Positions 1,649 to 64,000 of a stretch of 64,000 nt of DNA are shown here, in pieces. Below the pieces are notes generated by a model, which did not search any database, was not told the DNA's origin, and was given only the letters and a program-made list of their open reading frames with translations. Where the stretch lies: IMG/VR virus record IMGVR_UViG_3300036987_000420, positions 9,577-73,576 of that record, one strand, 5' to 3'. The DNA comes from a virus. Its lineage: Duplodnaviria; Caudoviricetes. A program made the position numbers and the translations under genes. Numbering within the stretch: the first letter of the stretch is position 1; each line of letters starts with the position of its first letter.

Positions 1649-3418
1649 TCACGCCCCCATCTCCCGCACGAATCGACTGGGCTCGCACGGCTCCTCGGCG
1701 GCGCCGGGGTACGGCACGCGAATCGCGGGACTCGTGACGACGAGGTGGTCGCGCGCTCGGGTGCACGCGACGTAGAAGAGGCGCCGCTCCTCGGCCAGGT
1801 CGTCCGGGTTGCGGGCGGCGCTCGCCGTCGGCCAGGCGCTCTCGGCCGCGCCGACGACGTAGACCACCGGCCACTCCAGGCCCTTCGCACCGTGCACCGT
1901 CGAGAGGGTGACGGCGTCCTCCTCGCCGGCGCCGGCCGGCTCGACGTCGGAGAGCGCGGCGCGGTGCGCGAGGAACGCCGCCGGGTCCACGTCGACCGTG
2001 TCGTCGTCGAAGCGCTCGTCCGTCCACTCCTCAACGAGCGCGACTGCATCGGGCTCCTGGGCGCCCTGTCGCGCCGTCCACTTCCACGCCCAGCGTGCGA
2101 TCGTTCCGGCGGACACCGGACCGTTGGCGGCCGACTCCGCGGAGATGCCGGTGGTGAAGTCGCGCACCATCGGCAGGCACTCCAGCAACGGCCGGCGCTC
2201 CGTCGCGGCGCGCAGGCGGGCGGCGGCGACGTCCTCTCCGAGGGCGGCGCCGAGCGTCTCGGCGGCGAGGTCGTCGTGCGGGTCGACGCACAGGCGCAGT
2301 GCGGCGAGCACGACGCGGCCCTCCGGCGTCGCGAACGGGTCGGCCGGCCGGCGCAGGCGGCGCGTCGGGATGCCGCGGTCGGCCAGCGCCTGCTCGACGG
2401 CGTCGAGGTCGCGCCAGCGGCGGGCGAGGATGGCAACGTCGCGGGGCCGCGACAGCGCGAGCGACACATAAACCCACGCCGAGACGAGCGCGGGCTCGGC
2501 GCAGGACACGCCGGGCACGTCGACCCCGGCGCGCAGCGTGGCGACGCTCGGGTCGGTCGTCTCCTCCCGCGCCGCCTCGCAGTCCGGCAGCCCGAGCCCC
2601 ATCGCCCGCGCGATGCGGTTGGCCGCCTCGACGATGCCGGGGCGGCTGCGGTAGTTCGTGGCGAGGTGGTAGGTGTGCCAGTCGTCGCGGCCGAGCAGGC
2701 GCACGAAGGCAGCTGGCTCTGCCCCGCGGAAGCGGTAGATGCTCTGCCGCGGGTCGCCGACGCAGTAGAGGTGCCCGCGCTCGCAGGTGACCGCGACCAC
2801 GAACTGCCACTGGGCGACGGAGCAGTCCTGCGACTCGTCGACGAGCACGTGATCCCACAGCCCGTCGAGGTGGCCCTCCATCGCGGCGTGGACGACGGCT
2901 CGCTCCAGCTCGTCGTAGTCTACGGCGTTGGCGCGCTTCAGGATGTCGGCGTAGCAGCGTGCCGCCCGCTCGCTGCCGAGCGTCTTCGCGACGTCGACCC
3001 GCCGCGGGTCGCTGCCGCGCACGTAGGAGACCTTCGCGCCGGCGTCCCGGGCCGCCCGCTCGACGGCCGCCTCGACGTCCGACGTCTCGTAGAGCACCCA
3101 GCCCGGCCGGCGGCAGGCCCACTGCGGGTGGCGCTGCAGGAGCTGGTAGGCGAGCCCGTGGAAGGTGCCGATGTACATCGCCTCCGCGGCCTCGCCGCTG
3201 ACGAGCTCGCCGACGCGGCTGCGCAGCTCGGCGGCCGCGGCGCGGGTGAACGTCAACGCGACGATGCGCTCCGGCAGAACGGCGCGCTCGACGAGCAGGT
3301 GGCCGACGCGCTCGGTGAGCACGCGCGTCTTGCCGCTGCCGGCGCCGGCGATGACGACGACGCGGGCCTCCGCGGCCTCGACGGCGGCGAGCTGGGTGGG
3401 GCTGAGCTGCATCACCAT
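1649..3418 (-). CDS. UvrD/Rep-family SF1 helicase
   Basis: [64 protein letters not shown]. Confidence 0.95.
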
Positions 3419-3903
3419 CCTCCGTCATCCTCGGCAGCCGGCGCGCCGGTCGCGTTCGTGCGGGGCGCCGCGGGGGCCGAGGCCGGCCGACTCGGCGGCG
3501 GTCCGTATCCGCCACCGTAGCCGCCGCGGTCGTCGTCCTGCGGCGGCGGCGGGTCGTCCCGGCGCCGGCCGGCGCCCGGCGTGCCGCCCAGGAACTCGAC
3601 GTGCGACGCGACGACCTCGGTGGTCTGGTGTCGCTGGCCGTCCTTCTCCCACTCGCGCGTCTGCAGCTTGCCCTCGACGTAGACCTGCCGGCCCTTCGCG
3701 AGGTGCTCCTTACAGACCTCGGCGAGCCGCCCCCAGGCGATGACGCGGTGCCACTCGGTGCGCTCCTGGCGCTTGCCGTCGCGGTCCGTCCACACCTCGT
3801 TGGTGGCGACGCGGAGGTTCGCCACGGGCTGGTTGCTGGCGGTGTACCGGATCTCCGGGTCCGCGCCGAGATTGCCGATGAGGATGACCTTGTTGATGCC
3901 CAT
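3412..3903 (-). CDS. ssb: Single-stranded DNA-binding protein
   Basis: [21 protein letters not shown]...TEWHRV...[12 protein letters not shown]; acidic C-tail. Confidence 0.97.
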
Positions 3904-6368
3904 CAGGCCGCCTCGCCTTCCCCGGCCGCAGCCGCCGTCTCGGCCTGCGCCGCGAGCGCCGCGCGGACGCGCTTCTTCTTCGCGGTGTCGGCGGCGACCA
4001 TCGCCGTCGACTCGCGCTTCGCGGCCTCGCGGACCTCGGCGCCGCACTGGCAGCCGCGCGCCCGGTGGGCGTCGACGCGGATGCGCTGCCCGTCGCAGAA
4101 GACGTAGTCGGTGGGCTCCAGGCCGCCGGCCTCCGGCGGGTCCGGCACGACGGCGCCGGCCTCGTCGACCACGGCGGCCGGCGAATGCTGGTGCGCGTCG
4201 CAGACGAACACGGCAGGCGTCCGCGGGCTGTCGCGGTGCGCCTGGACGATGGCGACGCCGCTGCCGGCGAGCTTGTGCGCCAGGTCCGGCACGACGACGC
4301 CGGCGATGCCCTCGGCGACGTCGACCCGCATCGCGCAGAGCACGGCGGACAGTCGGCCGGCGCGCTGCTCCTCGGCGAGCACGCGCACCAGGCGGATGGC
4401 GCGGTCGGTCTCGAGCGCCTCGAGCCGGTCGATGACGACGGCGCGGAAGGGTGCTACGCTCGGATCTCCCTGCGACTGAAGGGATTGAGACGCGTACATC
4501 AGCGCGACGCCGCAGACGATCTGCTCGCTGTCGCTGAGCGCGGAGTAGGGGCGCCAGGCGTCCGACCCCTCCGGCCCGCCGGCGTCGAAGGTGACGAGAC
4601 CGAAGCCCCAGGCAGCGGGCTCGTCGCCGTTCGCGGGCAGCGGCCGGAACGCGAAGCCGCGCGCCAGCGGGTCGCCGCCGTACACCGGCCGGACGATCCG
4701 GTCGGCGTGCGCGGTCACGGCGGCCGCCGATCGCCGCGCCAGCTCGACGCCGAACGCGCCGAGCGCGCGCTCCAGGGCCCCCCAGGTCGCCCGCGCCAGG
4801 ATGGCCGCGTCGAGGTCGGCCTCGTTCGCGGCCCGCAGGCGCTCGGCCTCCTCGAAACCGGCGAGCCGGGCGACCTGGTCGGACACGGCGGTCAGATCCG
4901 CCTCGCGCTTGTCGCGCGCCCCCTCCAGGTCGCCGACACCCTCGAGCGGCGGCAGGGCGGCGAGCGCCTGCTCCGCGGCGACGAGCTCCGAGCGGGCGGA
5001 CGCGACGACCGCGGCGGCCTCGGACCGGGCGCGCTCCCCGGACGCGGCGCGCTGGGCGGCGGCGTGCGCGGCGCGCAGCGCGTCGGTGGCGCTGCGCTCG
5101 GCGTTCTCGGCCTCGCTGGCGGCGGCGTAGGCGTCGTCGGCCGCCCGCCGCGCGGCGTCGCCCCGCACCCCGAGCACCGCCTCCCGGCGCGCCAGTCCGG
5201 TGCGCTTCTCCTGGATGGCGGAGCGCGCGGCGTCGAGCGCGCCGCCGGTCGTGCCGCAGGTCGGACAGTGCCCGTCGGCGAGCGCGACGAGCGTCTGGTC
5301 GATGCGCGACAGGTCGCCACGCACGTCCCGCAGCTTCGCCTCGACCTCGGCCGCGGCGTTGTGCGCGGCGACCGCCGCCGCGCCGAGCTCCTTGCGGCGC
5401 GCGGTGGCGGCGTCGGCCGTCGCCTGGGCCTGCGCGACGGCGCCGGGGGCCGCCTCGGCTGGCGCCTGGGCGGCCGCGCCGGGCCGCTGCTCCGCCGCGG
5501 TGACCCGCTGCCGCGCCGTCTCGACGCGCGCCGCGGCCCGCTGGCGCTCGGCCTGCGCCTGGGCACGGGCGGCGAGCTTCTCGCGGACGGCGGTCAGCTC
5601 CTCGCGGACGCGGCGCTCCCGCGCCTGGGCGTCGGCCAGCGTCCCGGGCGGCAGGTCGTCGCGGCGCAGGTCGACCAGCCGGCCGCGGGCCTTCTCGGCC
5701 TCGGCCTTGCGCCTCTGCCACTCGTTCTTCTGGACGCGCGCGTGCTCCTTCGCGCCCTCCAGTCCGTCGGCGGCGAGCGCCTCGGCCACGGCGGCGAGCT
5801 GCGCCGCGTCCGGGCGGCCCTGGCGCGGCTGCCCGCGGGCGTCGTCGTACTCCACCTCGGTCCGGCGCAGGCGGTCGTCGAGGTCGGCGCGGATGGCCGG
5901 GTCGGCGAGCGTCACGCCGGCGACCTTCGCTACCAGCGCGGCCTGCTTCTCGGTCGTGAGGCTGATGAAGTCGGCGAGGTCGGTCGGCTGCATCCGCTGC
6001 GCGCCGAGGTGCGCGGCGAGACCCGCCTCGACCCCCTTCGCGTCCTTCACGAGCGGCTCGTCGCCGATGCTGAGGCGCGCCTCGTGCTTGGCGCCCAGGA
6101 TGCGGGTGAGGCGCAGCGGCCGGCCGTCGCTGGTCTCGCCCTCGACGCCGAGCTCGACGCGGCCGCAGTCCGCCGCGATGTCGCCGAGCTGCGCCGGGGT
6201 GGCGCTGCCACCGATGCGGGTGCCGAGGGCGAGATGGCAGGCGAGCAGGCGGGCCGACTTGCCGCTGCCGTTCGGGCCGACGACCAGCGTCGGGCGGGTG
6301 AGGTCGAGCACGAAGCGGCGGCCCTTGACGCCGTCGCCGTCGGCGATGATGGTGCGGATGGTGGTCAT
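3903..6368 (-). CDS. Rad50/SbcC-like SMC ATPase with zinc hook
   Basis: Walker A GPNGSGKS, long coiled coil with CPTCG hook, LSDSE signature-like motif, VVID Walker B, extra Cys/His C-tail. Confidence 0.85.
4468..4491 (-). repeat. CRISPR-repeat-like 24-nt hairpin, copy C (inside the Rad50-like CDS)
   Basis: Minus strand GTCTCAATCCCT-TCAGTCGC-AGGG; same architecture as copies at 31039 and 34755. Confidence 0.7.
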
Positions 6369-6679
6369 CGAGTCCCCCCTCGGTGCCGCAGTGCGGCGAT
6401 GATGGTCCGGGCGTCGGCGGCGCCGATCCTCGCGCCCTTCTCCCCTGCCTCGACGGCGCGCAGGCGGTCGATGGCCAGCGCCAGGTCGCTGTCGTCTCGC
6501 TGCTCGGCCGCGCGCACCACGGCCGACACCCGCTCCACGTCGCGCAGCGTCGCCGACACCGCGGTCATGTAGAGCGCGCGCGGCGTCGCCCGGGTCAGGT
6601 CGATCGCCCTGCGATGGTCGGCGTCCTCGGCGTCGGAAAGACGCAGGCGCACGCAGTGCGGACGAGGCGCTCTGTTCAT
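6365..6679 (-). CDS. Hypothetical protein
   Basis: ATG with GGAGAGGA RBS; stop overlaps the Rad50-like start. Confidence 0.65.
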
Positions 6680-6698
6680 CTGCAGAAGTCCTCTCCAG

Positions 6699-6891
6699 AA
6701 AAGGAGCGTCGTGCCTCGCCGGTCGGACGCGTCCAGTCGCGCTCTCGGGGCAGTCGGTGCGGTCCGTCGTTCGTACACCGCACAGGCACGTCGTTTTTCA
6801 GCGCCCCTCGCTCCTTGCGCCCCCGGGTGGAGTCGGACCACCCTGGCGAACCCGCTCCTGGACGCGCGGGCTGCCTCCCCGGTAGGGGCAC
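6699..6891 (-). ncRNA. Candidate structured RNA (tRNA-sized fold plus nested multi-stem)
   Basis: Acceptor-like GTGCCCC/GGGGCGC-A, T-arm GGGTGG-TCCGACT-CCACCC, then nested stems AAGGAGCG/CGCTCCTT, CGTGCCT/AGGCACG, GTGCGGT/ACCGCAC. Confidence 0.4.
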
Positions 6892-6923
6892 GCCGGGCCA
6901 CAACACGGGCCCGGCCGGCGCTG

Positions 6924-8246
6924 CTACGCCGCCCGCGTCGCCAGCGTCGCCAGGGCGCGCAGCGTCTCCTCGAGGATGGCGGCCTGGGCCTCGTCGGCCG
7001 CCCAGCTCCCGTCCTTCGCCGGCCGCGGGAACTCCGGGTCGTCGGCCCGGATCTCGTCGAGGGCCTCACGCAGACGCGCCTTCGCGGCGTCCATGTCGCC
7101 GCCCTCGAGCTCGAGCGCGACGCCGCGGACGTGCTGCCACAGCGGGGACGGCCCGGACCCGTTGCTCGGCGTCCGCGACTCGGCGGCCGGCTGCGGCGCC
7201 GGCGTCTCCGCCGGGAGCTGGTCCGCCGGCTCCTGGTCGGGCGCCTCGACCGCGTCGTCGACCTCCTCCACGTCCTCGACGTCTTCGATGTCCTCCTCGG
7301 GCTCCGACGGCAGGTCGGCGGCCGGGGTCGCGCGGACGAGTGGCTCCTCGACGTGGGCGGCGAGCTGCGCCAGGGGGCGGGCGCCGGCGCCCAGCACGCG
7401 GCCCGACTCGTAGGCGGACTGCGCCGCCTCGATCATCGCGAGGGCCGGGCCGGCGAAGCCGAGGTACACCGTCCAGACCCCGGCGGCGCCGTGGGCGGTG
7501 CGGCTGCGCTTCATGCGGAGCAGCAGCGGGACGGCGGAGAGCGTCGGGACCTTCTCCTCGTCGACCAGCCGCTGCAGCTCGTCGATGACGCCCTGCGTCT
7601 CGTCGAGGCCGATGATCGACTTGCTGCGGTAGCGGACGACGCCGAACGTCGACTCCAGCGCGGCGAGCTGCAGGCGCAGCTCCCACTCCGCGGCGCAGCG
7701 CGGGAACACCGGCTGCTTCCCGGTCGCGTCCATGCGGGCGTACCACGGGCACTCCGTGCCGTTGCAGACGACGGTCGTCGCGGCGCCGAGGTCGTTCTCC
7801 GCGCCGACGGGCTTGAAGCCCTGCGGCAGCGGCGCCACGACGCCGTCGTCGGACACGCGGTGCCGGTGGCACGCCGTCTGGCCGTCGCCCTGGCAGACGA
7901 CCGTGTCGCCGTCCTTCGTGCGGGCCCGGAACTGGCTGCCGAAGATGCCGTCCAGGTCGCGCGCCGGCGCGAGGTAGACGCGGATGGCGCGCAGCTTGGC
8001 CGTGGGCTCCTCGGGCGCCAGCCGCGCCTGCTCCTCGAGCAGCCGCGCCATGAGGGCGTCGTCGACCTGCCGGTTGCCGGCGGCGTCGTCGGGGTCGACG
8101 CCGGGCAGACAGACCTCCATGTAGTCGAGCCGCTCCGGGTAGGTCGGACGGCCGTCCTTCAGGCGCCGGCGGCCGATGCGGATGTGCCGCTCGGTCGGCA
8201 GCGTGCCCACGGCGCGGCCGGGGCGCAGGTTCACGATGCGGGGCAT
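6924..8246 (-). CDS. Gp3-like (recombination directionality factor-like) phage protein
   Basis: LPTERHIRIGRR...PERLDY, VVCQGDGQTA, C..EC...C..EWELRLQL, YRSKSIIG, VPLLLR pattern; acidic linker; GAGGAGG RBS. Confidence 0.6.
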   Translation of the reverse strand: MPRIVNLRPGRAVGTLPTERHIRIGRRRLKDGRPTYPERLDYMEVCLPGVDPDDAAGNRQVDDALMARLLEEQARLAPEEPTAKLRAIRVYLAPARDLDGIFGSQFRARTKDGDTVVCQGDGQTACHRHRVSDDGVVAPLPQGFKPVGAENDLGAATTVVCNGTECPWYARMDATGKQPVFPRCAAEWELRLQLAALESTFGVVRYRSKSIIGLDETQGVIDELQRLVDEEKVPTLSAVPLLLRMKRSRTAHGAAGVWTVYLGFAGPALAMIEAAQSAYESGRVLGAGARPLAQLAAHVEEPLVRATPAADLPSEPEEDIEDVEDVEEVDDAVEAPDQEPADQLPAETPAPQPAAESRTPSNGSGPSPLWQHVRGVALELEGGDMDAAKARLREALDEIRADDPEFPRPAKDGSWAADEAQAAILEETLRALATLATRAA

Positions 8247-9038: not shown

Positions 9039-9117
9039 GGCCTCCCGGTCGGTGGTACTCTCGTCGTGCCACCGACGTCCCCGACGTGCGGGGATGAGAC
9101 ACACCGACAGGGAGGCC
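9039..9117 (+). promoter_or_regulatory. Inverted repeat enclosing an extended -10 box and pairing with the RBS (copy 1)
   Basis: GGCCTCCCgGTCGGTG / CACCGACaGGGAGGCC; TG-G-TACTCT at 9053-9061; ATG at 9121. Confidence 0.65.
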
Positions 9118-9120
9118 AGG

Positions 9121-9417
9121 ATGGACGAACTACGGATCCCATTCGTCGTCGCGTGCGACTGCGGCGCGAGTTTCTGGGTCGACGCCCAGCAGCTTGCGAC
9201 CCCGGGCCTGGTGTTCCAGTGCCCATCGTGCCTGACGTACCACCGGAATGTGCTGAGCCCGGCGCCAGAACTGGTACGGTCGTTCGCGGCCCGTCACGCC
9301 GCGCTCCGAGACGTCGTCAAGCGTGGAGGCCGCGTAACACAGGCCATCGAGAGCGACCTTCCGTTCGTGCGCGGCGAGCGGGAGTCGCTCGACGATCCGG
9401 GCTGCAAGCCGCAGTAG
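9121..9417 (+). CDS. Zinc-ribbon (MJ0042-like) small protein, paralogue 1
   Basis: CDCGASFWVDAQQLATPGLVFQCPSC; GGGAGG RBS. Confidence 0.75.
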   Translation: MDELRIPFVVACDCGASFWVDAQQLATPGLVFQCPSCLTYHRNVLSPAPELVRSFAARHAALRDVVKRGGRVTQAIESDLPFVRGERESLDDPGCKPQ

Positions 9418-11089: not shown

Positions 11090-11419
11090 ATGGAGCAGCA
11101 CCCTATCGCGCGCTGGCGCGCCCTCGCCCCGCCGGTCTCCCAGGCCGCGCTGGCGCGGGAGATCGGCATCGCGCAGCCGTCGCTCTGGTCGATCGAGCGG
11201 GGCGCGACGCAGCCCTCGGCCAACACCGTCCGCGCGCTGGTCGCGGCGACCGAGCGGCTGCGGCCGGGCCGCGGCCTGTCCGCCGGGCAGATCCTCGGCA
11301 CCGAGCTGTCTCCGTCCCCTCAGAGCGAGGAGGCATCGGCCGCGGCGAGCTCGCCGGCCGCGGCGAGCGCCCGCCCGGACCCTATCGAGGCCGCCGCGGC
11401 GGCCGAGGAAGCAGCCTGA
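11090..11419 (+). CDS. Cro-like XRE-HTH regulator
   Basis: SQAALAREIGIAQPSLWSIERG; first gene after PR; GGAGG RBS. Confidence 0.88.
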   Translation: MEQHPIARWRALAPPVSQAALAREIGIAQPSLWSIERGATQPSANTVRALVAATERLRPGRGLSAGQILGTELSPSPQSEEASAAASSPAAASARPDPIEAAAAAEEAA

Positions 11420-31024: not shown

Positions 31025-31062
31025 GTCTCAATCCCCTTGTCTCAATCCCCTCACGGGCGGGG
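31025..31062 (+). repeat. CRISPR-repeat-like hairpin copy A with tandem 14-nt partial copy
   Basis: GTCTCAATCCCCTT + GTCTCAATCCCC-TCACGGGC-GGGG. Confidence 0.75.
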
Positions 31063-31075
31063 TCCGCAGCGTACC

Positions 31076-31471
31076 ATGATCGACGCCGACGCCTACGCCG
31101 AGCAGGTGGCGATCCACCTCGCGGAGATCCTTCCCGAGGAGCCGAACGCGATCCGCGTGCGCCTGGCGGGCGGCACGCGCAACATCGTCGGCGAGCTCGT
31201 CGGCGCGACCGAGACGCGCCTCGACCTGCGGGTCGACATCCGCCCCTACCGGCGCGCCGAGCGTGGCGCGGCCGGCGAGGCGGAGCGCGGCGACACAGCC
31301 ATCGCGCTCCTGGAGGACGCGCTCGAACCCGGCGACCTGGTCGAGGCCGAGGGGCACCGCTACCGCGTCATCGCGGTGCAGCCCCGCTACCTCGCCGGGC
31401 GCGTCCACTGCTACGACGCGACGGCGGAGCGCCTCGACGTCGAGCGCGGCTCGCCGGTCGTGGACGGGTAG
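31076..31471 (+). CDS. Head-tail adaptor/stopper
   Basis: LEPGDLVEAEGHRYRVIAV motif; position. Confidence 0.7.
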   Translation: MIDADAYAEQVAIHLAEILPEEPNAIRVRLAGGTRNIVGELVGATETRLDLRVDIRPYRRAERGAAGEAERGDTAIALLEDALEPGDLVEAEGHRYRVIAVQPRYLAGRVHCYDATAERLDVERGSPVVDG

Positions 31472-32050: not shown

Positions 32051-32659
32051 GTGGCTGCGACCGACCACCTCTGGGATCACGTGGCCGGCGCGCTCGTCAC
32101 GGGCCTGCGGACCGCGCTCGGACTCGCGGCGGACCGCTGCCACGTCGGCTGGCCGGCGCCCGGGCAGGGCCCCGAGGCCGGCCCGTTGCCGGCGCTGTCG
32201 GTGACGCTCGCCTCCGCCCAGGTCGCGCTGCGGCGCGCCATCCGCGTGGCGAGCGTCGAGGGTGCCGTCCCGGCCGAGGCTGTGGCGACGTACCAGATCG
32301 GCCAGGGGACGGCGACGCTCCAGGTCGACCTGTGGGCGCCCAGCAAGACGGCGCGCCTGGCGCTCGCCGGGGCGGTTCGTGACTACCTGGTCGGTCGGCC
32401 GTCGACGGGGCTGACCGGCCGCATCCTGACGCTCGACCGGCTCTCCGAGCGAGCGCGCTACACGGCCGGCCAGACGACCTACGACGACGACGACGGGGCC
32501 GGGCCGCGGGCCCTGCTGCCCGTCTCCGTCCGGGTCCCGTACCTCGTCCGCGAGACGCTGGCGCGGGCGCAGAAGCTCGTCATCGAGTCGCAGCGTCCGG
32601 CTGGCTCGCCGCCGCTTCCGGGCCTCGGTCCGGAGACGCGGATCATTTTCGCGCCCTGA
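32051..32659 (+). CDS. Tail terminator/completion protein
   Basis: Position before sheath; LQVDLWAPSK motif. Confidence 0.65.
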   Translation: MAATDHLWDHVAGALVTGLRTALGLAADRCHVGWPAPGQGPEAGPLPALSVTLASAQVALRRAIRVASVEGAVPAEAVATYQIGQGTATLQVDLWAPSKTARLALAGAVRDYLVGRPSTGLTGRILTLDRLSERARYTAGQTTYDDDDGAGPRALLPVSVRVPYLVRETLARAQKLVIESQRPAGSPPLPGLGPETRIIFAP

Positions 32660-32699
32660 ACACGCACCGAGGCCCGGAGACGGGCCGCCGGAGGGGACC

Positions 32700-34229
32700 A
32701 TGTCCGAGCCCTACTACAGCAACAACCCCCTCGACTGGACGGCCCTCGACGGGCTCTACATCGACAAGCAGGACCCGCCGCTGCCGCTCACCGCGGGCGG
32801 GGCCGGCGTGGTCGGGTGCGTCGCCGAGCTGCCGTGGGGTCCGGTCGACACGCCGATCCTGATCGGCGCTCCGATCGCGCTCGTGCGCGCCTTCTTCGGC
32901 TACGACACCGACCCCGACTACTACTACGGCGACGGCGGCAGCAAGACCGGCTACAAGGGCTGCATCGGCCTCGCGAAGAAGCGGTGGAGCTCGCGCGGCA
33001 TCTACATCGTGCGCGTCGGCCACTCCGGCCAGGCGGGGGCCGAGAAGAACCTGATGGACGGCGCGACGCCGGCCAAGATCGCGCTCACCATCAAGGCGAA
33101 ATATCCGGGCAAGCTGGGCGACCGCATCCAGTACAAGGTGACCAACAACACGTCGAGCTTCGACCTGGAGGTCCGCTGGGGCGACCGCGCCGAGACCTAC
33201 GTGGGCCTGACGCTCACCACCATGGTCGAGCGCGTCGGCGGCAACTCCGATCTGGTCGTCGTCGCGGCGGGCGAGTCCGGCGCAGCGCTGCCGGTCACGG
33301 TCTCCTCGTGGACGAACCTGGCGGGCGGCTCCGACGGCACGCCGGCCGCGTCCGACTACGCGGGCAGCGACGTGTCGAAGGTCGGATTCCGCACGTTCGC
33401 CGACTACCCCGACGTCGAGCTGATGTTCGCGGCGGAGTTCGAGTCGGACACCCTCGACGCCGCCATGGACGCCTGGCTCCTCGAGCGTGGCTACGGGGTC
33501 TTCTTCGCCGGCTGCGCCATCGGCGACGCGCTCGCCGACGCGAAAGCGAAGCGCGCCGCGCTCATCGCCGCGTCGGATGGCTCGCGGACCCGCATCTGCT
33601 GGCCGGGCCTGCGGGTCACGATGCCGAACGACCGCGTCGTCGACACGATGTCGAGCGGCTGGCAGTGCGCCGCGGCGGCCCAGATCAGCCCGCACCGCGA
33701 CATCGCCGCGGCCGGCACGAAGAGCGCCTACACCGGCTGCATCGCGCTGGAGGACGGCGTCCAGATCACGCGGGCCGACTACATCGACGCGTTGAACCAC
33801 GGCATCGGCGCGATGGAGCAGCTGTCGTCGGGCGGCTTCAAGGCCCGCAGCGGCATCGTCGCGGACTCCGACGGCAGGCTGCTCCTCCAGGTCCGCATGG
33901 CCGACCTCATCCACCGCGCCGAGGCGAAGCGGCTGGAGAGCTACCAGAACGAGCCGATGGACGCGGAGTGGAAGGAGGGGGTCCGGGCGGCCATCTCCGA
34001 CTACCTGAAGTACCTGCAGGACCCGCCGCGCAAGATGCTCAAGGCGTTCAGCGTCGACGACACGTCGCTGAACACGGAGTCCTCCGAGGCGGCCGGCGAG
34101 TGGTACGTCGTGCAGAAGGTCCAGCTCTACCCGCCCGGCCGCTTCATCGTCGTGCGGTCGATGATCGGCACCACGGTCGTCATCACGACCGAGACGTCGG
34201 GCGGGGGCGGGGGCGGCATCTCCGTCTGA
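32700..34229 (+). CDS. Tail sheath protein
   Basis: GVVGCVAELPWGPVDTP, AKYPGKLGDRI, LAGGSDG motifs. Confidence 0.92.
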   Translation: MSEPYYSNNPLDWTALDGLYIDKQDPPLPLTAGGAGVVGCVAELPWGPVDTPILIGAPIALVRAFFGYDTDPDYYYGDGGSKTGYKGCIGLAKKRWSSRGIYIVRVGHSGQAGAEKNLMDGATPAKIALTIKAKYPGKLGDRIQYKVTNNTSSFDLEVRWGDRAETYVGLTLTTMVERVGGNSDLVVVAAGESGAALPVTVSSWTNLAGGSDGTPAASDYAGSDVSKVGFRTFADYPDVELMFAAEFESDTLDAAMDAWLLERGYGVFFAGCAIGDALADAKAKRAALIAASDGSRTRICWPGLRVTMPNDRVVDTMSSGWQCAAAAQISPHRDIAAAGTKSAYTGCIALEDGVQITRADYIDALNHGIGAMEQLSSGGFKARSGIVADSDGRLLLQVRMADLIHRAEAKRLESYQNEPMDAEWKEGVRAAISDYLKYLQDPPRKMLKAFSVDDTSLNTESSEAAGEWYVVQKVQLYPPGRFIVVRSMIGTTVVITTETSGGGGGGISV

Positions 34230-34326: not shown

Positions 34327-34752
34327 ATGGCCGAGGATGTCGTCCTCAGCAGCGACGTGCAGATCCGCGTCTTCAAGGCCGGCGTCCCGATCGGCGCCAT
34401 CGACGCGACGGGCTTCTCCGTCAACCAGCAGGCCGAGGTGCGCACCCGCGCCCTGCTCGGCAGCCGCGAGAAGGACACGTACGTCGTCTACTCGGGGCAC
34501 AGCGGCACGGTGAGCGTCGAGCGGACGAACACCCGCGTCGATGACCTCATCGACAGCCTGGAGACGCAGTTCTTCGACGGCAAGCCGGTCGACGAGATCC
34601 AGATCGCGAAGACCGACGCGTACCCGGACGGCACGCGGCGGACCTACATCTACCAGCGCTGCCGCATCTGGGCGGACGACAGCGGCTCGGGCGACGCGGC
34701 CGCGACCATCACGCTGAACTGGCGCAACGGCAAGCCGCGCGTGAAGGCGTAG
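34327..34752 (+). CDS. Tail tube protein
   Basis: 141 aa beta-rich protein directly after sheath. Confidence 0.8.
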   Translation: MAEDVVLSSDVQIRVFKAGVPIGAIDATGFSVNQQAEVRTRALLGSREKDTYVVYSGHSGTVSVERTNTRVDDLIDSLETQFFDGKPVDEIQIAKTDAYPDGTRRTYIYQRCRIWADDSGSGDAAATITLNWRNGKPRVKA

Positions 34753-34754
34753 AC

Positions 34755-34778
34755 GTCTCAATCCCCTCATCGGCGGGG
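34755..34778 (+). repeat. CRISPR-repeat-like hairpin copy B
   Basis: GTCTCAATCCCC-TCATCGGC-GGGG, 22/24 identical to copy A. Confidence 0.75.
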
Positions 34779-34837
34779 AGCGCCGCCGCCCGGCCGCAGG
34801 GTAGACGACCACGCCAGGTCACGGGAAGCAGGACCCG

Positions 34838-51386: not shown

Positions 51387-52434
51387 TCAGAACAGGCTCC
51401 GCCGGCCGGGATCCCAGACGCTGCCCGGCATCCCGGCCCAGGCGCTCCCTCGCGGCGCGACCGTCCGGGACCGCCCGACGCGCGTGACCCGGGCCGGGGC
51501 GCTGCCGCCCGTGCCCTTCGTCGCGGCCGCCGCCGGCGTCGCGGCGGACGGGGCGGGCTTCGGACGCCCCTCCAGCCGCACGCCCATGGCGAGCAGCGAC
51601 TTCAGCGCCGCCATCGCGTACACGCGGCAGTCGAGGGCCTCGTTGCGGCGGTTGTCGGGCTTCCACCAGAAGTAGACCGGGCGGCCGTCCTTGTGGCGGG
51701 TGCGGAGCTTCTCCGCGGTCAGCTGGAAGAAGTAGACCTCGTCGTTGTGTGGCTTCGAGAAGTGGCAGTAGCCCGGGCCGGGCCGGTCGATGAGCAGGCG
51801 CGCGAACAGCAGCTCCTTCGCCGTGTCGGTGCCGACGGCGTAGACGTCGTACTTGCCCCTCATCGGCTTGCCGGGCCGAACCGACCAGACCGGGTGGGGG
51901 CGAGTGCTGGGTGTTGATCGTGCCCTTCACCGCCCAGATGCGGCGGGCGGCCAGCTCGGCGGCGAGGCGGTCCGGGATCGCCATCATGCGTTTGCGGACG
52001 CCCTGGGCCAGCTCGAACCAGCGCCGCTCCACCTCGGCGGTCCGCGCGAAGGCGCCGGTGCGCGACTCGTAGTCGAGCTGGCGGAGCTTCGCCTTGAAGA
52101 GGGCGTCGGCGGTCTTGGCCTGGGCGTAGGTGCCGGCGGCCGGGGCGGGCGAGCCTGCGGTTCCGACGCCGGCACCGGCGTGTCCCACCGCCGGCGGGGC
52201 GCCGGCCGTGATGCGCTTCCCGGCCATCTCCGGCCCGGGCGGGGAGGCCGTGGCCGTCCACTCCCGGTCCGCGACCACCGGGTCGATCGTGCCCTTGTTG
52301 CCTCTGATTATCACTACCGCCAGAACCTCTGGACGGGGTCGATCGGTCCTGCTCGACACCCTGGTGGCCCCGATCCCGACCTCGCTGCGCGCCTGCCGAC
52401 GCCGGGCCCCGTCGCTGTCGAGCTGCCACGTCAT
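51387..52434 (-). pseudogene. Deleted lambda-type terminase locus (Nu1-like fused to gpA C-terminus)
   Basis: KAKLRQLDYESRTG...IPDRLAAELAA joined directly to RRIWAVKG, frameshift, then VGTDTAKE...QLTAE...RNEALDCRVYA. Confidence 0.8.
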
Positions 52435-52603
52435 CGCTCCTCGCGCAGGTCCGGGAGGGCAGGGCGGCCAGGCCAACGCCGGGCCCACCGCGCCCTCTTA
52501 CGTCTGCTCCTACGCCGCGGCGGGGACGGCTGTTGCAGGCGGGCGGGGAGGGGAGGCGGCGGGGGTCCGGTGCGGCCGTCGGCGGTCGGCGGGCGTCGGG
52601 ACA

Positions 52604-52647
52604 AAATTACCACAGTCGCTTACGGGTATGGTAACTTCGTCCCCATG
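52604..52647 (+). promoter_or_regulatory. AbiE operon promoter/operator
   Basis: TTACCA-N16-TGGTAA inverted repeat; TG-G-TAACTT extended -10 ending 7 nt before ATG 52645. Confidence 0.6.
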
Positions 52648-54682
52648 GTGCGTCCTGACGACAACGGCCAGCAGCTCGAATTGCCCTTCGGCGGCCGGCC
52701 AGGGTCACGCTGCGTCGGTTCAACGGGTGAGAGTCCCGTCCCGGTAGGCGCCGGAGCGCCGGGTAGCAAGCCCCAGGCGTCGGAGGAGACTCCGGCGGCC
52801 CGAGCGGGGCGTCGAAAGCCTCTTCGGAGGGAGCAAGCGCGCGGGCCGCAACATCAAGTGAACGCTGCAGCCTCGACAGATGAACAATGGGAGGGCCGAG
52901 CCGCTCATGTCACGGCGAAGGCGATCCCCGACGAGCCGATTCCGGAGCGCTCGCCGGGTCTCCCCGGGGTACGGGCGGCGGCACGTGCGCAAGGACCGAC
53001 GCGGAACAGGAGAGGCCCGTCTGCGCAGCCCGAGTCGGGGCAAGGCGCCTCGTATAAGCCGAGTGCGAAATCGAGCGCCGCGCAGCGGGAGTCCGAGGGG
53101 GTCGTAGTACTGCTGACCCCGGCGCAGCAGAACGCCGGGCGAGGGAAGGACCCCTACGGTGATCGTGCCGGAAGCGGGGCCACGTGCGAGGGCATGGCCG
53201 GGCAACAGAGCCGGTCCAACTCCCCCATCGGTCCATCGACCGACGAGAAAGCACGCCACCTCCAACGCCGGCTGTGGGCCGCGGCCAAGCGGTCCCCGGG
53301 GCGCCGCTTCCACGCCCTGTACGACCGCATCCACAGGGATGACGTCCTGTGGATGGCGTGGGAGCGGGTCAAGGCGAATCGTGGTGCGGCCGGCGTCGAT
53401 CGCGAGACGGTGGCCGACATCGAGCAGCTTGGGGTGGGGGGCATCCTTCGGGAGCTCCAGACCGAGCTGCAGGCGGGAACGTACCGACCGCTGGCGGTCC
53501 GGCGGCAGTACATCCCGAAGGCCAGCGGCAAGCTGCGGCCGCTGGGCATCCCGGCGGTGCGCGACCGGATCGTACAGGCGGCGACGAAGATCGTGCTGGA
53601 GCCGATCTTCGAGGCGGACTTCCTGCCGTGCTCGCACGGCTTCCGCCCACGCCGAAACGCGACGGGCGCGCTGGAGACCCTGCGGAAGCGGGCGTACCGC
53701 GATGATGCGGGGAACTTCTTGCTGGACGCGGACATCCGCGGGTACTTCGACAGCATCGACCACTCGAAGCTGCTGGAACTCGTGGGTCGGCGGGTCAGTG
53801 ACCGTCGGGTGCTCAAGTTGCTGCGGCAGTGGCTCCGGGCAGGGGTGATGGAGGAGGGCAGCGTGACCCGCAGCCTGGCGGGCACTCCGCAGGGCGGAGT
53901 GATCTCGCCGCTGCTGGCCAACATCTACCTGCACGTCCTCGACCAGCGGTGGACGGCCGAGCATGCCCAGTTGGGCACACTCGTGCGGTACGCCGACGAC
54001 TTCGTCGTCATGTGCGACACGGCGGAGGCCTGCGAGGAGGCCGAGCGGGTCATCCGGGGCGTCCTGGAAGACGAGCTCGGGCTGGAGCTGCACCCGGAGA
54101 AGACGAGGCGGGTCGAGCTGACCGGAGGCACGGAAGGCTTCGACTTCCTCGGCTGCCACCTGCACAAGCGGATGAGCGGACCACTCTGGGCGAAATACCG
54201 GCGGCGCCGGTACTACCTCCAGCGATGGCCCTCGACGACCGCGATGAAGCGGGTACGCACACGCGTGAAGGAGCTGACCGACAAGCGCTGGAACGGGATC
54301 ACGGACCTGCGCCAGATCATCGCGCGGGTCAATCCTGTCCTGCGAGGTTGGGGCAACTACTTCCGGACCGGGAACGCCGCCAAGAAGTTCAACCAGCTCG
54401 ACACCTACGTCTACCGCCGGTTCCACCGCTTCCTCGTTCGGCGGAAGGGACGGAACCTGAAGGCCGGCGAGGCTGACCGCTGGACGCGGGACTTCTTCTG
54501 GGGCCTCGGACTGCACCGTCTGCGAGGAACCGTCCGCTACCCGGAGGCTGCGTAATGCGACGACCCGAGAGATCACCCGTGAGCCGTGTGCGGGAAAACC
54601 GCACGCACGGTTCGAAAGGGGGCCGTACCGCCACGACAGCCGGCGAGGCATCGTCGGCGTCGGTCAGGTAAGGTCTACCAAT
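52648..54682 (+). mobile_element. Group II intron (5' end 52647 or 52648)
   Basis: GTGCG 5' end, RT ORF, domain V GAGCCGTGTGCGGGAAAACCGCACGCACGGTTC (54581-54613), DVI ending CTACCAAT. Confidence 0.93.
53194..54555 (+). CDS. ltrA: Group II intron reverse transcriptase/maturase (no endonuclease domain)
   Basis: GAAGVD, IPKASGKLRPLGIP, PQGGVISPLLANIYL, RYADD, FDFLG, domain X LRGWGNYF. Confidence 0.97.
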   Translation: MAGQQSRSNSPIGPSTDEKARHLQRRLWAAAKRSPGRRFHALYDRIHRDDVLWMAWERVKANRGAAGVDRETVADIEQLGVGGILRELQTELQAGTYRPLAVRRQYIPKASGKLRPLGIPAVRDRIVQAATKIVLEPIFEADFLPCSHGFRPRRNATGALETLRKRAYRDDAGNFLLDADIRGYFDSIDHSKLLELVGRRVSDRRVLKLLRQWLRAGVMEEGSVTRSLAGTPQGGVISPLLANIYLHVLDQRWTAEHAQLGTLVRYADDFVVMCDTAEACEEAERVIRGVLEDELGLELHPEKTRRVELTGGTEGFDFLGCHLHKRMSGPLWAKYRRRRYYLQRWPSTTAMKRVRTRVKELTDKRWNGITDLRQIIARVNPVLRGWGNYFRTGNAAKKFNQLDTYVYRRFHRFLVRRKGRNLKAGEADRWTRDFFWGLGLHRLRGTVRYPEAA

Positions 54683-55286
54683 GGGGCGACGGACCACAGA
54701 GCAGGTAGCCCGGGTCATTCGCGCGCACGGCGGCACGCTACGCACGTCCGAGGCCGAGCGGCTGGGCGTTCGCCGGCAGGCCCTCTACCGGCTGCGGGAC
54801 CTCGGGCTCGTCGTGCCGGTGAGCCGGGGCGTCTACCGCCTCGCCGACCTGCCAGACCTGTCGGAGCCCGACCTCGTGGCCGTGGCCACACGCATCCCGC
54901 GGGCCGTCGTCTGCCTCGTGTCGGCCCTGGCCCTCCACGAGATCACGAACGAGATCCCGCACGAGGTCCACGTCGCGCTGCCGCGGGACGTGAAGACGCC
55001 CCGGCTCGACTACCCGCCCCTGCGTGTCTTCCACTTCTCCGGCGCCGCGCTGACCGAGGGCGTCGAGACGCGAGAGATCGACGGCGTGGCGGTGCGCGTC
55101 TACGGCCCGGAGAAGTCCGTGGCCGACGCCTTCCGCTTCCGGAACCAGCTCGGGCTCGACCTCGCGATCGAGGCGCTGAAGCTGTGCCTGGAGCGGAAGC
55201 GGGCGTCCCGGGCGACGCTTCTGCACTTCGCCCGCATCTGCCGCGTGAACAAGGTGATGTTGCCGTACCTGGAGGCGCTGCAGTGA
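54681..55286 (+). CDS. abiEi: Type IV TA antitoxin AbiEi
   Basis: N-terminal wHTH (VSRGVYRL), VCLVSALALHEIT, PEKSVADAF. Confidence 0.9.
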   Translation: MGRRTTEQVARVIRAHGGTLRTSEAERLGVRRQALYRLRDLGLVVPVSRGVYRLADLPDLSEPDLVAVATRIPRAVVCLVSALALHEITNEIPHEVHVALPRDVKTPRLDYPPLRVFHFSGAALTEGVETREIDGVAVRVYGPEKSVADAFRFRNQLGLDLAIEALKLCLERKRASRATLLHFARICRVNKVMLPYLEALQ

Positions 55287-56197
55287 AGCCCCCGCCCAAG
55301 GATATGGCCGCGTCGGTCCGCGCGCGGCTGAAGGCGCGGGCCGTGCGGGACGGCCGGCCGTTCAACGAGGTGCTGCAGTACTACGCCATCGAGCGCTTCC
55401 TCTACCGCGTCTCCCGGACGCCGCATGCCGAGCGCGTCGTCCTCAAAGGCGCGCTCATGCTCCAGGTCTGGGGCGGCCCGCTGGTGCGTTCGACCCGCGA
55501 CATCGACCTCCTCGACCGAACCCCCGGCAGCGTGGACGAGCTCGTCGCGATGGTCCGCGAGTGCCTGGCCGTCCCGGTCGAGGACGACGGGATGGTGTTC
55601 GACCCCGCCCTGGTCGAGGGCCAGCGGATCCGCCTGCACGCACACTACGAAGGCGTTCAGGTTCTCTGCCGCGGGCGACTCGGCGTGGCACAGGTCACCG
55701 TGCAGGTGGACGTCGGCTTCGGAGACGTGGTGACGCCGCAGCCCATGCGCCTGAGCTACGGCTCGCTGCTCGACCTCCCGGAGCCGGAGCTGCTCGGCAC
55801 CACGCCGGAGACGATGATCGCCGAGAAGTTCGAGGCCATGGTCGTGCTCGACTTCCCGAACTCCCGGATGAAGGACTTCTACGACCTGTGGTTCCTCGGC
55901 CGGGAGCGCGGCTTCGACGGCGAGGTGCTCGCCAAGGCCATCGAGCAGACGTTCAAGCGACGCAGGACACCGCTCCCGACCGGGACGCCGATCGCGCTGA
56001 CCGCGGCGTTCGCGAACGACCCGACGAAGCAGACGCAGTGGCGGGCGTTCGTGCGCAAGGTCCGGCTGCCCGAGCCGGTGCCGACGTTCGAGCAGGCGGT
56101 CGAGGCTGTCGCCGCGCTCGTGCTGCCGCCGGTCGAAGCCCTCGTAGCCGGGCAGGCGTTCGAGCGGACCTGGGAGCCGGGCGGGCCGTGGCGGTAG
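55283..56197 (+). CDS. abiEii: Type IV TA toxin AbiEii nucleotidyltransferase
   Basis: VLKGALML, RSTRDIDL, QVDVGFGD, IAEKFEA, RMKDFYD. Confidence 0.93.
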   Translation: MKPPPKDMAASVRARLKARAVRDGRPFNEVLQYYAIERFLYRVSRTPHAERVVLKGALMLQVWGGPLVRSTRDIDLLDRTPGSVDELVAMVRECLAVPVEDDGMVFDPALVEGQRIRLHAHYEGVQVLCRGRLGVAQVTVQVDVGFGDVVTPQPMRLSYGSLLDLPEPELLGTTPETMIAEKFEAMVVLDFPNSRMKDFYDLWFLGRERGFDGEVLAKAIEQTFKRRRTPLPTGTPIALTAAFANDPTKQTQWRAFVRKVRLPEPVPTFEQAVEAVAALVLPPVEALVAGQAFERTWEPGGPWR

Positions 56198-61217: not shown

Positions 61218-61673
61218 GTGCGTCCCGGACACGTCGCGGAGGAAGACAGCTCGGCGCGGCGGCGCTACATCACGACCGCGGCGCGGCACCGCCTGCACCA
61301 GGCCGCGTTCCGAGAGAAGGTCCTGCAGGCCTATCAGCAGCAGTGCGCCCTGTGCCGGCTGCGGCACGCCGAACTCCTGGATGCGGCACACATCGTCGCC
61401 GACGCGGAAGACGCCGGAGAGCCGGTCGTCGAGAACGGGCTGGCGCTCTGCAAGCTCCACCACGCGGCGTTCGATCGGCACTTCCTGGCGGTCCGCCCGG
61501 ACTACCGCGTCGAGCTCCGTCGGGACGTGATGGAGGAGGACGACGGGCCGATGCTGCGCCACGGACTTCAGGGCATGCACGGCGGGCTGATCCTCCTGCC
61601 GCGGTCGAGGAGTCTCTGGCCCGACCCCGAGCGACTGAAGGCGCGGTACGAGGAGTTCAGGCGGGCGTCGTAG
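61218..61673 (+). pseudogene. HNH endonuclease C-terminal half (type IV restriction-like)
   Basis: QAAFREKVLQAY..CALC...AAHI...NGLALCKLHHAAFD; N-terminal domain absent. Confidence 0.75.
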
Positions 61674-62149: not shown

Positions 62150-63169
62150 TCAGAGCGCCTCGAGCCACTCGAGGATGCTCGCGTCGGTGCGCCACGAGGG
62201 GGCGGCCGGAACCGCAGGCCCGAGGTGGCCGGCCTTCTCGAGCGCCGCGCGCTTCGTGTCGAGGTCGATGGCGGCATAGCGGTTGGTCGTCTCGACGCTC
62301 GCGTGCCCGAGCCAGTGGCTGATGGTCACGAGGTCGACGCCGGCCTGGAGCAGATGTACGGCGGTCGTATGGCGCAGGATGTGGGGGTGGACGTGCTTCG
62401 TGGTGAGCGTCTTCTCGCGCTGCGCTGCGCGGCCGGCGTACTTGCGAAGCAGATACCCGATGCCGAAGCGGGTCAGCGGCTTGCCGACGTGGTTGCGGAA
62501 GAGCGGGGCGGCGGAAGCCGGGTCCGTGCCGTGTTCGTGAAGCAGTGCGCGGAGGGCGTTTCCGGTCTGCGACCACAGCGGGCAGAACCTCTCCTTCCGT
62601 CCCTTCCCAACGAGGCGGAGCTGTAGCGGTCTCACGAGCTGGAGATCTGCCGGGCGGAGGTCGAGGATCTCCTGCACCCGCGCGCCGGTGTTGAACATCG
62701 TCAGGATCAGTGCGTGGTCACGCCGGCCATCAGGAGTCCCACGATCGGGCGCCTCGAGGATGGCCTGCATCTCGGCGGTCTCCAGGTACTCGACGACCCG
62801 CAGGGAGGCGCGCTTGAATGGCACCGCGAGGAGCTGTTGGCACCGTTCGAGCTGCTCGGGATGGCTGGAGGCAGCGTAGCGAGCGAAGGCGTGCACGGCG
62901 GCGAGCCGCGCGTTCCGCGTCGTCGCGCAGTTTCGTCGATCGGCCTCGAGGTGCTCGAGGAAGGCGACGACGTGATCGGGCTCCAGATCGCCGAAGTCGA
63001 GGTCGATGACATCGCGCCCGTAGCGGGTTGCGAGGAAGCGGAGAAGTAGGGTGAACGCATCGCGATAGCTGAGCGAGGTGTGCGGGCTCACGCCGCGGAC
63101 TCGGGGGAGGTAGTCCGCAAAGAAGGCGCGGAGCGCACTGGCGAGTGCGTTCGGACGTTCGGTCTTCAT
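62150..63169 (-). CDS. Tyrosine recombinase (RitC-like)
   Basis: TGARVQE, GKGRKER, HILRHT, LGHASVETTNRY. Confidence 0.93.
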   Translation of the reverse strand: MKTERPNALASALRAFFADYLPRVRGVSPHTSLSYRDAFTLLLRFLATRYGRDVIDLDFGDLEPDHVVAFLEHLEADRRNCATTRNARLAAVHAFARYAASSHPEQLERCQQLLAVPFKRASLRVVEYLETAEMQAILEAPDRGTPDGRRDHALILTMFNTGARVQEILDLRPADLQLVRPLQLRLVGKGRKERFCPLWSQTGNALRALLHEHGTDPASAAPLFRNHVGKPLTRFGIGYLLRKYAGRAAQREKTLTTKHVHPHILRHTTAVHLLQAGVDLVTISHWLGHASVETTNRYAAIDLDTKRAALEKAGHLGPAVPAAPSWRTDASILEWLEAL

Positions 63170-64000
63170 CACACACCTCCGTCGCCATCGAAGGCGCCCA
63201 GCACCGGCGCGCAGTGGCGCGCGAAGCGCTCGCTCGCCGCCTCGGCGATCGGCGCGAAGAACGACAGGTAGTACGCGGTCGACACGATGGACACGTGGCC
63301 CATCGCTGCCGCGAGCGCCGGGAGCTTCGCTTGCACGTCGACGCCCGCGCGATACCAGCGCCACAGGGTGTGCACGGCGTACGTGTGCCGCAGGTCGTGC
63401 ACGCGCGGGGGCTTGCCGCGCGCCGTCCGGACACCGGCGCGCCGAAAGAGCAGGCGCATGCTCATGCCGAAGCTGGGTCCGGTGTACGCGTGTCGTCCGT
63501 GGAACCGGTTGGTGAGAAGCGGGGCATCAGCGGACCACGGCAACCGGCGACGGGCGGCGAGGTAGCGCTCCATCTCGCGGGTCGCGTCGTCGGAGAGGGC
63601 GACGATGCGCGACTTGTGGAACTTGGACGAGCGAATGAGCAACGTGTGTTCGACGGGGTCGTAGTCCGAGATCACAAGCCGGACTATCTCGCCACGTCGT
63701 AGGCCGGTCGTGTATAGGAGCACGATGGCAAGGCGGAAGACGGCCGAGCACAGCGGCGAGTTGGGCCGCGTGCGCAGGGCATCCGTGGTGCGCAACAGAA
63801 CCAGAATATCGTGCTCCGTGAAGATGTAAGGCTGCGACCGCGGGTGGGGACGTGGGAAGAGGGCCGGATCGGGCACGAAGTAGTCCGGGGCGGTACGGCG
63901 GCCCGTGTAGCGCAGATGCAGGAGAGCTACGGCCTCGACGACCTGCTCGCCGCCATCGGCCATGCCCTGCGCTACGGAGCGTACGACGCGCAGTCGATCG
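63169..64000 (-). CDS. Tyrosine recombinase (RitB-like), 5' end outside window
   Basis: TGLRRGE, SKFHKSR, HDLRHT, MGHVSIVSTAYY. Confidence 0.88.
   Translation of the reverse strand, partial: DRLRVVRSVAQGMADGGEQVVEAVALLHLRYTGRRTAPDYFVPDPALFPRPHPRSQPYIFTEHDILVLLRTTDALRTRPNSPLCSAVFRLAIVLLYTTGLRRGEIVRLVISDYDPVEHTLLIRSSKFHKSRIVALSDDATREMERYLAARRRLPWSADAPLLTNRFHGRHAYTGPSFGMSMRLLFRRAGVRTARGKPPRVHDLRHTYAVHTLWRWYRAGVDVQAKLPALAAAMGHVSIVSTAYYLSFFAPIAEAASERFARHCAPVLGAFDGDGGV

Follow-up and report, generated by a model that had tools for sequence, protein, structure and literature searches.

The DNA analysed here (the window) is a stretch of 64,000 nt, corresponding to positions 9,577-73,576 of the IMG/VR virus record IMGVR_UViG_3300036987_000420, and all coordinates below are those of the window. 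The whole record measures 73.6 kb at 74% G+C and carries no host flank. Its source is a myovirus-like prophage, with contractile-tail phage genes that include the sheath (32700-34229), a tube-like protein (34327-34752), a head closure protein (31076-31471) and a terminase. The terminase shares only 24% identity with actinophage terminases, and a search for a close viral relative of the sheath protein found none. The left 9.6 kb of the record hold an integrase, a methylase and genes of no known kind, and nothing else.

Several further elements were observed in the record. A group II intron lies in the 51387-54634 region (Rfam D1-D4 at 52721-52856 and domain V-VI at 54579-54634; its RT-maturase is encoded within 51853-54555) and adjoins a fragment of the terminase gpA nuclease domain (51387-51863, minus strand). 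Beyond it come an AbiEi/AbiEii toxin-antitoxin pair (54681-56197), an HNH gene (61218-61673) and, at 62150-63364, a second tyrosine integrase. Yet another integrase is found at the left extreme of the record (L128:383-1606), which probably contains two or more mobile elements. A strong palindromic hairpin of 58 nt (32619-32676) sits at the junction 5' of the sheath gene and yields a sub-threshold microRNA family match on both strands, surely a mere hairpin resemblance.

The element of interest is embedded in a gene for an SMC/Rad50/SbcC-like ABC ATPase, which is followed by ssb and a uvrD-like helicase gene, as the sequence-only reading of this DNA had proposed:

1649-3418, minus strand: uvrD-like helicase gene, after ssb and on the same strand as the ATPase gene
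3412-3906, minus strand: ssb, directly downstream of the ATPase gene
3903-6368, minus strand: SMC/Rad50/SbcC-like ABC ATPase gene (P0001, 821 aa), assigned on motifs and profile
4419-4442, minus strand: Walker B and D-loop of P0001, AVVIDRLE
4521-4538, minus strand: signature motif of P0001, LSDSEQ
5256-5267, minus strand: CPTC hook of P0001, in a long coiled coil
6255-6278, minus strand: Walker A of P0001

P0001 shares with SMC, Rad50 and SbcC ATPases the series Walker A, coiled coil with CxxC hook, signature, Walker B and D-loop, and displays it in this order. The profile of its family matches the head structures of SMC1A, Smc and Rad50, with LSDSE opposite LSGGE of SMC1A and the Walker B strand opposite its VLDQIDA, and the predicted structure of P0001 has a long helical hairpin between the two head halves. 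Unlike these ATPases, however, P0001 belongs to a rare and divergent family (27 relatives among 1.8 billion representatives), its Pfam matches remain below threshold, and no Mre11/SbcD-type partner was detected beside the gene among neighbouring ORFs and by Pfam. The ORF upstream (6365-7069) has no Pfam match and the next ORF matches only an RDF-like family. P0001 found no match in the phage collection, and related loci were found neither in viral contigs (with P0001 or the family alignment as query) nor in genome contigs (with the family alignment as query).

Between the signature motif and Walker B of P0001 lies a short stretch whose composition departs from that of the gene around it and which we refer to as unit C:

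4452-4460, plus strand: extended -10-like box TGNTACNCT, 7 nt upstream of the unit C stem
4452-4491, either strand: low-GC patch of 40 nt (GC 0.575), codons S627-A639 plus the last base of A626
4455-4491, plus strand: the full 37-nt CRISPR-repeat-like unit C, consisting of a 5' part, a hairpin and ATTGAGAC, in crRNA-like orientation and antisense to the gene
4468-4491, minus strand: the 24-nt core of unit C, with the complement of the tag, then a stem of 4-5 bp with an 8-nt loop

The 24-mer is present on the minus strand exactly as first described; it is in frame with ORF 3903-6368 and reads A-SQSLQSQG (residues 627-638), flanked by LSDSEQ and AVVIDRLE. On the opposite, crRNA-like strand the hairpin comes first and is followed by the 8-nt tag ATTGAGAC, and box (4452-4460, plus strand), 7-nt linker, hairpin and tag together cover the whole 40-nt patch, the GC minimum of the ATPase gene (0.55-0.58 vs 0.78). 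The atypical codons reported by the sequence-only reading are equally real. In a gene with a GC3 of ~0.91 and strong pressure toward G/C-ending codons, 7 of the 13 codons at unit C end in A or T, which makes this the top such window among all gene bodies. All seven are rare in their synonymous sets (CAA, 0.6% of Gln codons or 2/324; TCT, 1.7%; CTT, 1.6%; GTA, 0.9%; GGA, 5.5%; GAT, 5.1%; GCA, 3.6%).

Unit C is solitary, with no second copy within kilobases, and is a real member of a repeat family of four, the other members of which are dispersed through the window:

9066-9100, minus strand: unit D, degenerate (tag one base short, loop shorter)
31039-31075, plus strand: unit A, between genes and 37 nt long, with a 14-nt half copy in front of it (31025-31038) and a box at 31068-31076 on the minus strand
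34755-34791, plus strand: unit B, 2 nt past the tail tube stop, with a TACCCT box at 34798-34803 on the minus strand

A covariance model (R1) was built on four CRISPR repeats together with units A and B, with unit C excluded, and we searched with filters off. The best new match was unit C itself, aligned over positions 1-37 of 37 at 31.3 bits (E ~6e-7), in agreement with the earlier claim of a third repeat-like hairpin copy within the gene, and unit D was recovered at 18.5 bits (E 0.003). Two other candidate copies, at 11308 (plus) and 47901 (minus), were rejected as chance-level matches (R1 E 4.7 and 0.7), and the left 9.6 kb of the record contained no further repeat copy. At the level of exact words, the AT-rich 11-mer GTCTCAATCCC occurs four times in the record, at 31025(+), 31039(+), 34755(+) and 4491(-), and reversed-pattern controls gave no occurrence. 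Direct repeats border two of the units, TGATCG (6 nt) on either side of a 57-nt block at unit A and GTAGACG (7 nt) on either side of unit B; at unit C a flanking duplication of at least 5 nt was looked for and none was found. The hairpins are unremarkable in stability, with z-scores of -1.6 to +1.4 across the units, and we do not count their stability in favour of the family.

A resemblance arising by chance in a G+C-rich gene must be considered at this point, the more so since the sequence-only reading had named a shuffled-codon null that often gives such a match as part of what would refute its claim. The outcome of that null depends on the measure. When synonymous codons were shuffled over 30 kb of CDS with proteins and per-gene codon usage kept, matches of at least 19/24 to the A/B consensus arose in 11.8% of the shuffles because the 3' half of the core is G+C-rich, so that the plain match count is one that chance can reach and is left out of the argument. 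The 11-mer, however, arose in 0/1000 shuffles, and the R1 E-value for unit C points the same way. Three further features fall on this very site: a lineage-specific indel (see below), the lowest GC in the gene and a TGNTACNCT box, of which there are only three. We consider coincidental resemblance to be extremely improbable.

The relationship of the units to CRISPR repeats emerged from a scan of a degenerate 24-nt core pattern against 596 Gb of genomes, plus metagenomes. Only five matches were obtained in these public collections (two in CRISPR arrays and two at contig ends). Those in genomes are confined to two places, both CRISPR arrays. One is a Nannocystaceae array (L123) of more than 30 repeats, a variant of which unit C matches in 20 of the 24 core bases. 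The other is a Bradymonadales array (L124) of 37-nt repeats, where an A+T-rich stretch separates the array from a primase-domain gene and cas1; this layout puts the leader on the side from which the transcribed repeat ends in the hairpin plus ATTGAGAC. Cas6-processed repeats that yield an 8-nt 5' tag usually take this form. In this locus (L124:549-3580, minus strand) the gene between leader and cas1 encodes a 655-aa protein with an archaeo-eukaryotic primase (AEP-TOTE) domain. Metagenomes contributed three matches, two of them at contig ends, which is where arrays typically break assemblies, and one contig-end match (L127, on a contig of 73% GC) is identical to unit B in 23 of 24 core bases. 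A single copy of the repeat core lies inside a 651-aa ORF of a metagenome contig of 53% G+C (L125:13462-13498, minus strand; R1 31.1 bits), on the strand opposite to the ORF, and this copy is either a chance match or another intragenic solitary repeat. A 14-mer scan of viral contigs returned mostly lone, chance-level matches and one array (L076).

With Cas6-type repeats (L124, L123 and Rfam CRISPR-DR10, with an ATTGA(A/G)AC-type tag) the units thus have in common the 37-nt length, the tag, a C/G stem, the 8-nt loop and conserved loop ends. CRISPR-DR10 aligns end to end with unit C (4455-4491, plus strand), although this and the other Rfam CRISPR-DR matches are sub-threshold (13-16 bits vs 39), and literature matches to the tag sequence were to primers only. 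In contrast to array repeats, the units are solitary, with neither spacers nor an array, and no cas genes occur among the annotated proteins of the 73.6-kb record. Their first 13 nt match none of the CRISPR repeats found, so the likeness is limited to the 24-nt core. Judged by sequence, A to D are solitary CRISPR-repeat-like units.

How unit C came to lie within the ATPase gene is indicated by an alignment of 16 family members, including P0001 and P0003, a 327-aa fragment 99% identical to it. Six residues are absent at the unit C site from all 14 other homologues (22-69% identity; in one of them five are absent), and the segment is otherwise present only in P0003. We conclude that the longer form is the derived one and that the segment was inserted in this lineage. 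We accordingly read the peptide as dictated by the inserted nucleotides and the rare codons as the unit's own bases, not as a choice among synonyms in an older loop. The earlier proposal that an overlapping RNA signal constrains codon choice is thus borne out in one respect, namely that the odd codons are due to an overlapping nucleic-acid element, but not in the other, since a constraint on an existing loop finds no support among 14 homologues that lack the segment; at the protein level, this absence gives a different answer to the proposed test of synonymous-site conservation. In the AlphaFold model (mean pLDDT 81), residues 627-631 end the signature helix (613-631), a coil follows (632-642) and the Walker B strand spans 643-646; pLDDT is 65 at residues 631-640, compared to 90-92 on both sides, and according to this model the insertion site is plausibly tolerant of extra residues.

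The bases in which unit C differs from unit A bear on whether the inserted copy does anything beyond encoding protein. There are five changes in the core, three in the loop and two that form a compensated stem pair (C-G to T-A), and five random changes would be as compatible with the structure in ~0.3% of placements. All five are non-synonymous and make the peptide more helix-friendly. One of them replaces Pro by Leu, the Leu being conserved in the helix of the homologues; on its own it would leave an A-C mismatch on the crRNA-like strand, and the partner change on the other stem arm restores pairing. The Nannocystaceae repeat agrees with unit C in the 3' stem arm, but its base at the paired position is a C, as in units A and B. 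The compensated pair is suggestive only, being a single pair, and may mean that the fold is under selection or that unit C descends from another natural variant of the repeat.

These same changes can be accommodated by a neutral scar, in which template switching or illegitimate recombination wrote a copy in frame into a tolerant loop and the copy has no function as RNA. The segment is lineage-specific, lies in a low-confidence loop and has no flanking duplication, and the five changes make the peptide more helix-friendly, with the conserved Leu restored. Intragenic matches have also been set aside elsewhere: SRUFinder masks ORFs, and its authors count intragenic repeat matches as probable false positives (PMC10651486). 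Conversely, tag, stem and box are all intact despite the pressure toward G/C-ending codons, and the change that restores the Leu is matched on the other stem arm, yet both observations would also fit a very recent event. On balance we regard a scar devoid of RNA function as a possible but rather unlikely account.

The promoter-like box argues for a unit that was inserted together with its own signal. In the 64 kb, both strands included, TGNTACNCT has three matches, each just upstream of unit C, D or A in the crRNA-like orientation. The shorter pattern TANNNT is found 11-25 nt before the stem in 4/4 units, unit B having TACCCT at 25 nt, and with a background frequency of 4.5e-4 per nt this pattern is so rare that its presence at all four units is far beyond chance. 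The bases that follow the box are common to units A and B and, with one gap, to unit C; correspondingly, the resemblance of the tail downstream of the core to that of copy A, first noted by the sequence-only reading, extends over 10/11 bases with one gap and a 3-nt offset. On the plus strand, unit D follows a box at 9053-9061 and precedes the Shine-Dalgarno sequence and ATG of ORF 9121-9417, so the module sits there where a promoter and leader should be. A sigma-70 scan requiring both hexamers found no promoter in the unit regions, and the box, as a consensus match only, is a candidate promoter; it could instead be the 5' part of the host's own repeat.

The strand on which the units lie is informative as well. 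In units A, B and C the complement of the tag is in the sense strand of the local genes and the crRNA-like strand is antisense. The message of the ATPase gene thus carries the complement of a CRISPR tag, and the proposal that cleavage there separates the Rad50-like message from ssb and uvrD finds no support, because the strand that a repeat-binding nuclease would recognize is antisense to the gene. The general form of this proposal is that a hairpin in the sense RNA serves as a cleavage or binding signal that limits the choice of synonymous codons and detaches ssb and uvrD from the ATPase message. The two genes do lie downstream and the sense RNA of unit C can form the same 5-bp stem; however, this RNA is the reverse complement of the crRNA-like strand, its fold is not exceptional (z = -1.55), and there is no conserved site to constrain since the homologues lack the segment. 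We consider a sense-strand signal very improbable.

A different role for the message would be that of a type III self mark. In the mRNA, the first 8 nt of the unit are exactly complementary to the crRNA tag. A guide directed at the 35 nt immediately before them (4492-4527) would pair tag to anti-tag as well and so count as self. Recombination through a matching spacer may be how the unit was acquired from a host array. Such a mark would be in keeping with the shared orientation of units A, B and C and with the half copy at 31025, in which nothing remains but the tag complement and the first arm of the stem. In addition, the sole residue differences between P0001 and P0003 (V618I and M624T, 4497-4517) fall within 26 nt upstream of unit C, but two substitutions are too few to weigh. 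A mark of this kind would moreover protect only against a guide that ends exactly at the unit, and it accounts for the box common to units A, C and D only if that box belongs to the host repeat. On this evidence we hold the self mark to be improbable, if less so than a signal in the sense RNA.

Taken together, these data lead us to conclude with high confidence that a complete 37-nt solitary CRISPR-repeat-like unit, along with a promoter-like box, was inserted antisense and in frame into the ATPase gene. The insertion replaced ~20 nt for a net gain of 18 nt, or six residues, so that both the signature helix, at its end, and the loop leading to the Walker B strand became longer, at a site that plausibly tolerates this. 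As with units A, B and D, transcription of unit C would start from its own -10-like box and run against the ATPase gene. The resulting small RNA would begin with the hairpin and include the 8-nt tag, and a host Cas6-type enzyme or effector would bind this RNA as a decoy, as in the Racr mechanism. The intact tag, stem and loop length of unit C reflect either recent origin or selection.

Viral solitary repeat units (SRUs) typically lie downstream of promoters, and some are RNA anti-CRISPRs (Racrs) that tie up Cas6 and Cas7 (PMC10651486); RacrIF1 is an example (Camara-Wilpert et al. 2023, PMC10651486, and Faure et al. 2019 as cited there). The units described here resemble viral SRUs and Racr RNAs as lone CRISPR-repeat-like units in a cas-free prophage, with hairpin and tag kept, placed after a promoter-like box and present as several dispersed copies. 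Unit C itself is CRISPR-repeat-like in sequence and fold (in its core only), solitary and carried by a virus free of cas genes. It differs from these RNAs in its position, within a protein-coding gene and not between genes, where it is in frame with the coding sequence and antisense to it, and in its 5' third, which matches none of the CRISPR repeats found.

As an overall explanation we favour, by a narrow margin over its negation, an in-frame solitary repeat unit that may give rise to a Racr-like decoy from the antisense strand. The functional part of this explanation, namely that unit C acts as an antisense-transcribed decoy RNA, is put forward tentatively, by analogy with the Racr RNAs, and we think it somewhat less probable than its opposite. 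A stronger version, which we rate as rather doubtful, has the 40-nt patch function as a dual-coding element, in which one strand would specify 13 loop residues and the other a self-contained promoter with an anti-CRISPR or crRNA-like RNA gene, the downstream part of whose RNA would be antisense to the phage's own message; both strands would be under selection, the Pro to Leu change repairing the helix and its partner change the hairpin. The same doubt covers its variant, in which the patch is an array-captured type III self mark beside a targeted protospacer.

Unit C is of a known kind, a viral solitary repeat and possible RNA decoy, in an unusual place, inside a coding sequence. That an intragenic copy exists is backed in four independent ways: by intergenic paralogues, by a model built without it, by a lineage-specific in-frame indel and by a co-inserted promoter-like box. 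Coding regions are masked in published surveys of phage CRISPR-repeat mimics, which discount intragenic matches as noise. If intragenic copies are expressed, the catalogue of RNA anti-CRISPRs would be incomplete, and phage genes would be able to bear anti-defence RNA genes on their opposite strand. Unit C is also a clean example of a short mobile unit that lengthens a protein loop.
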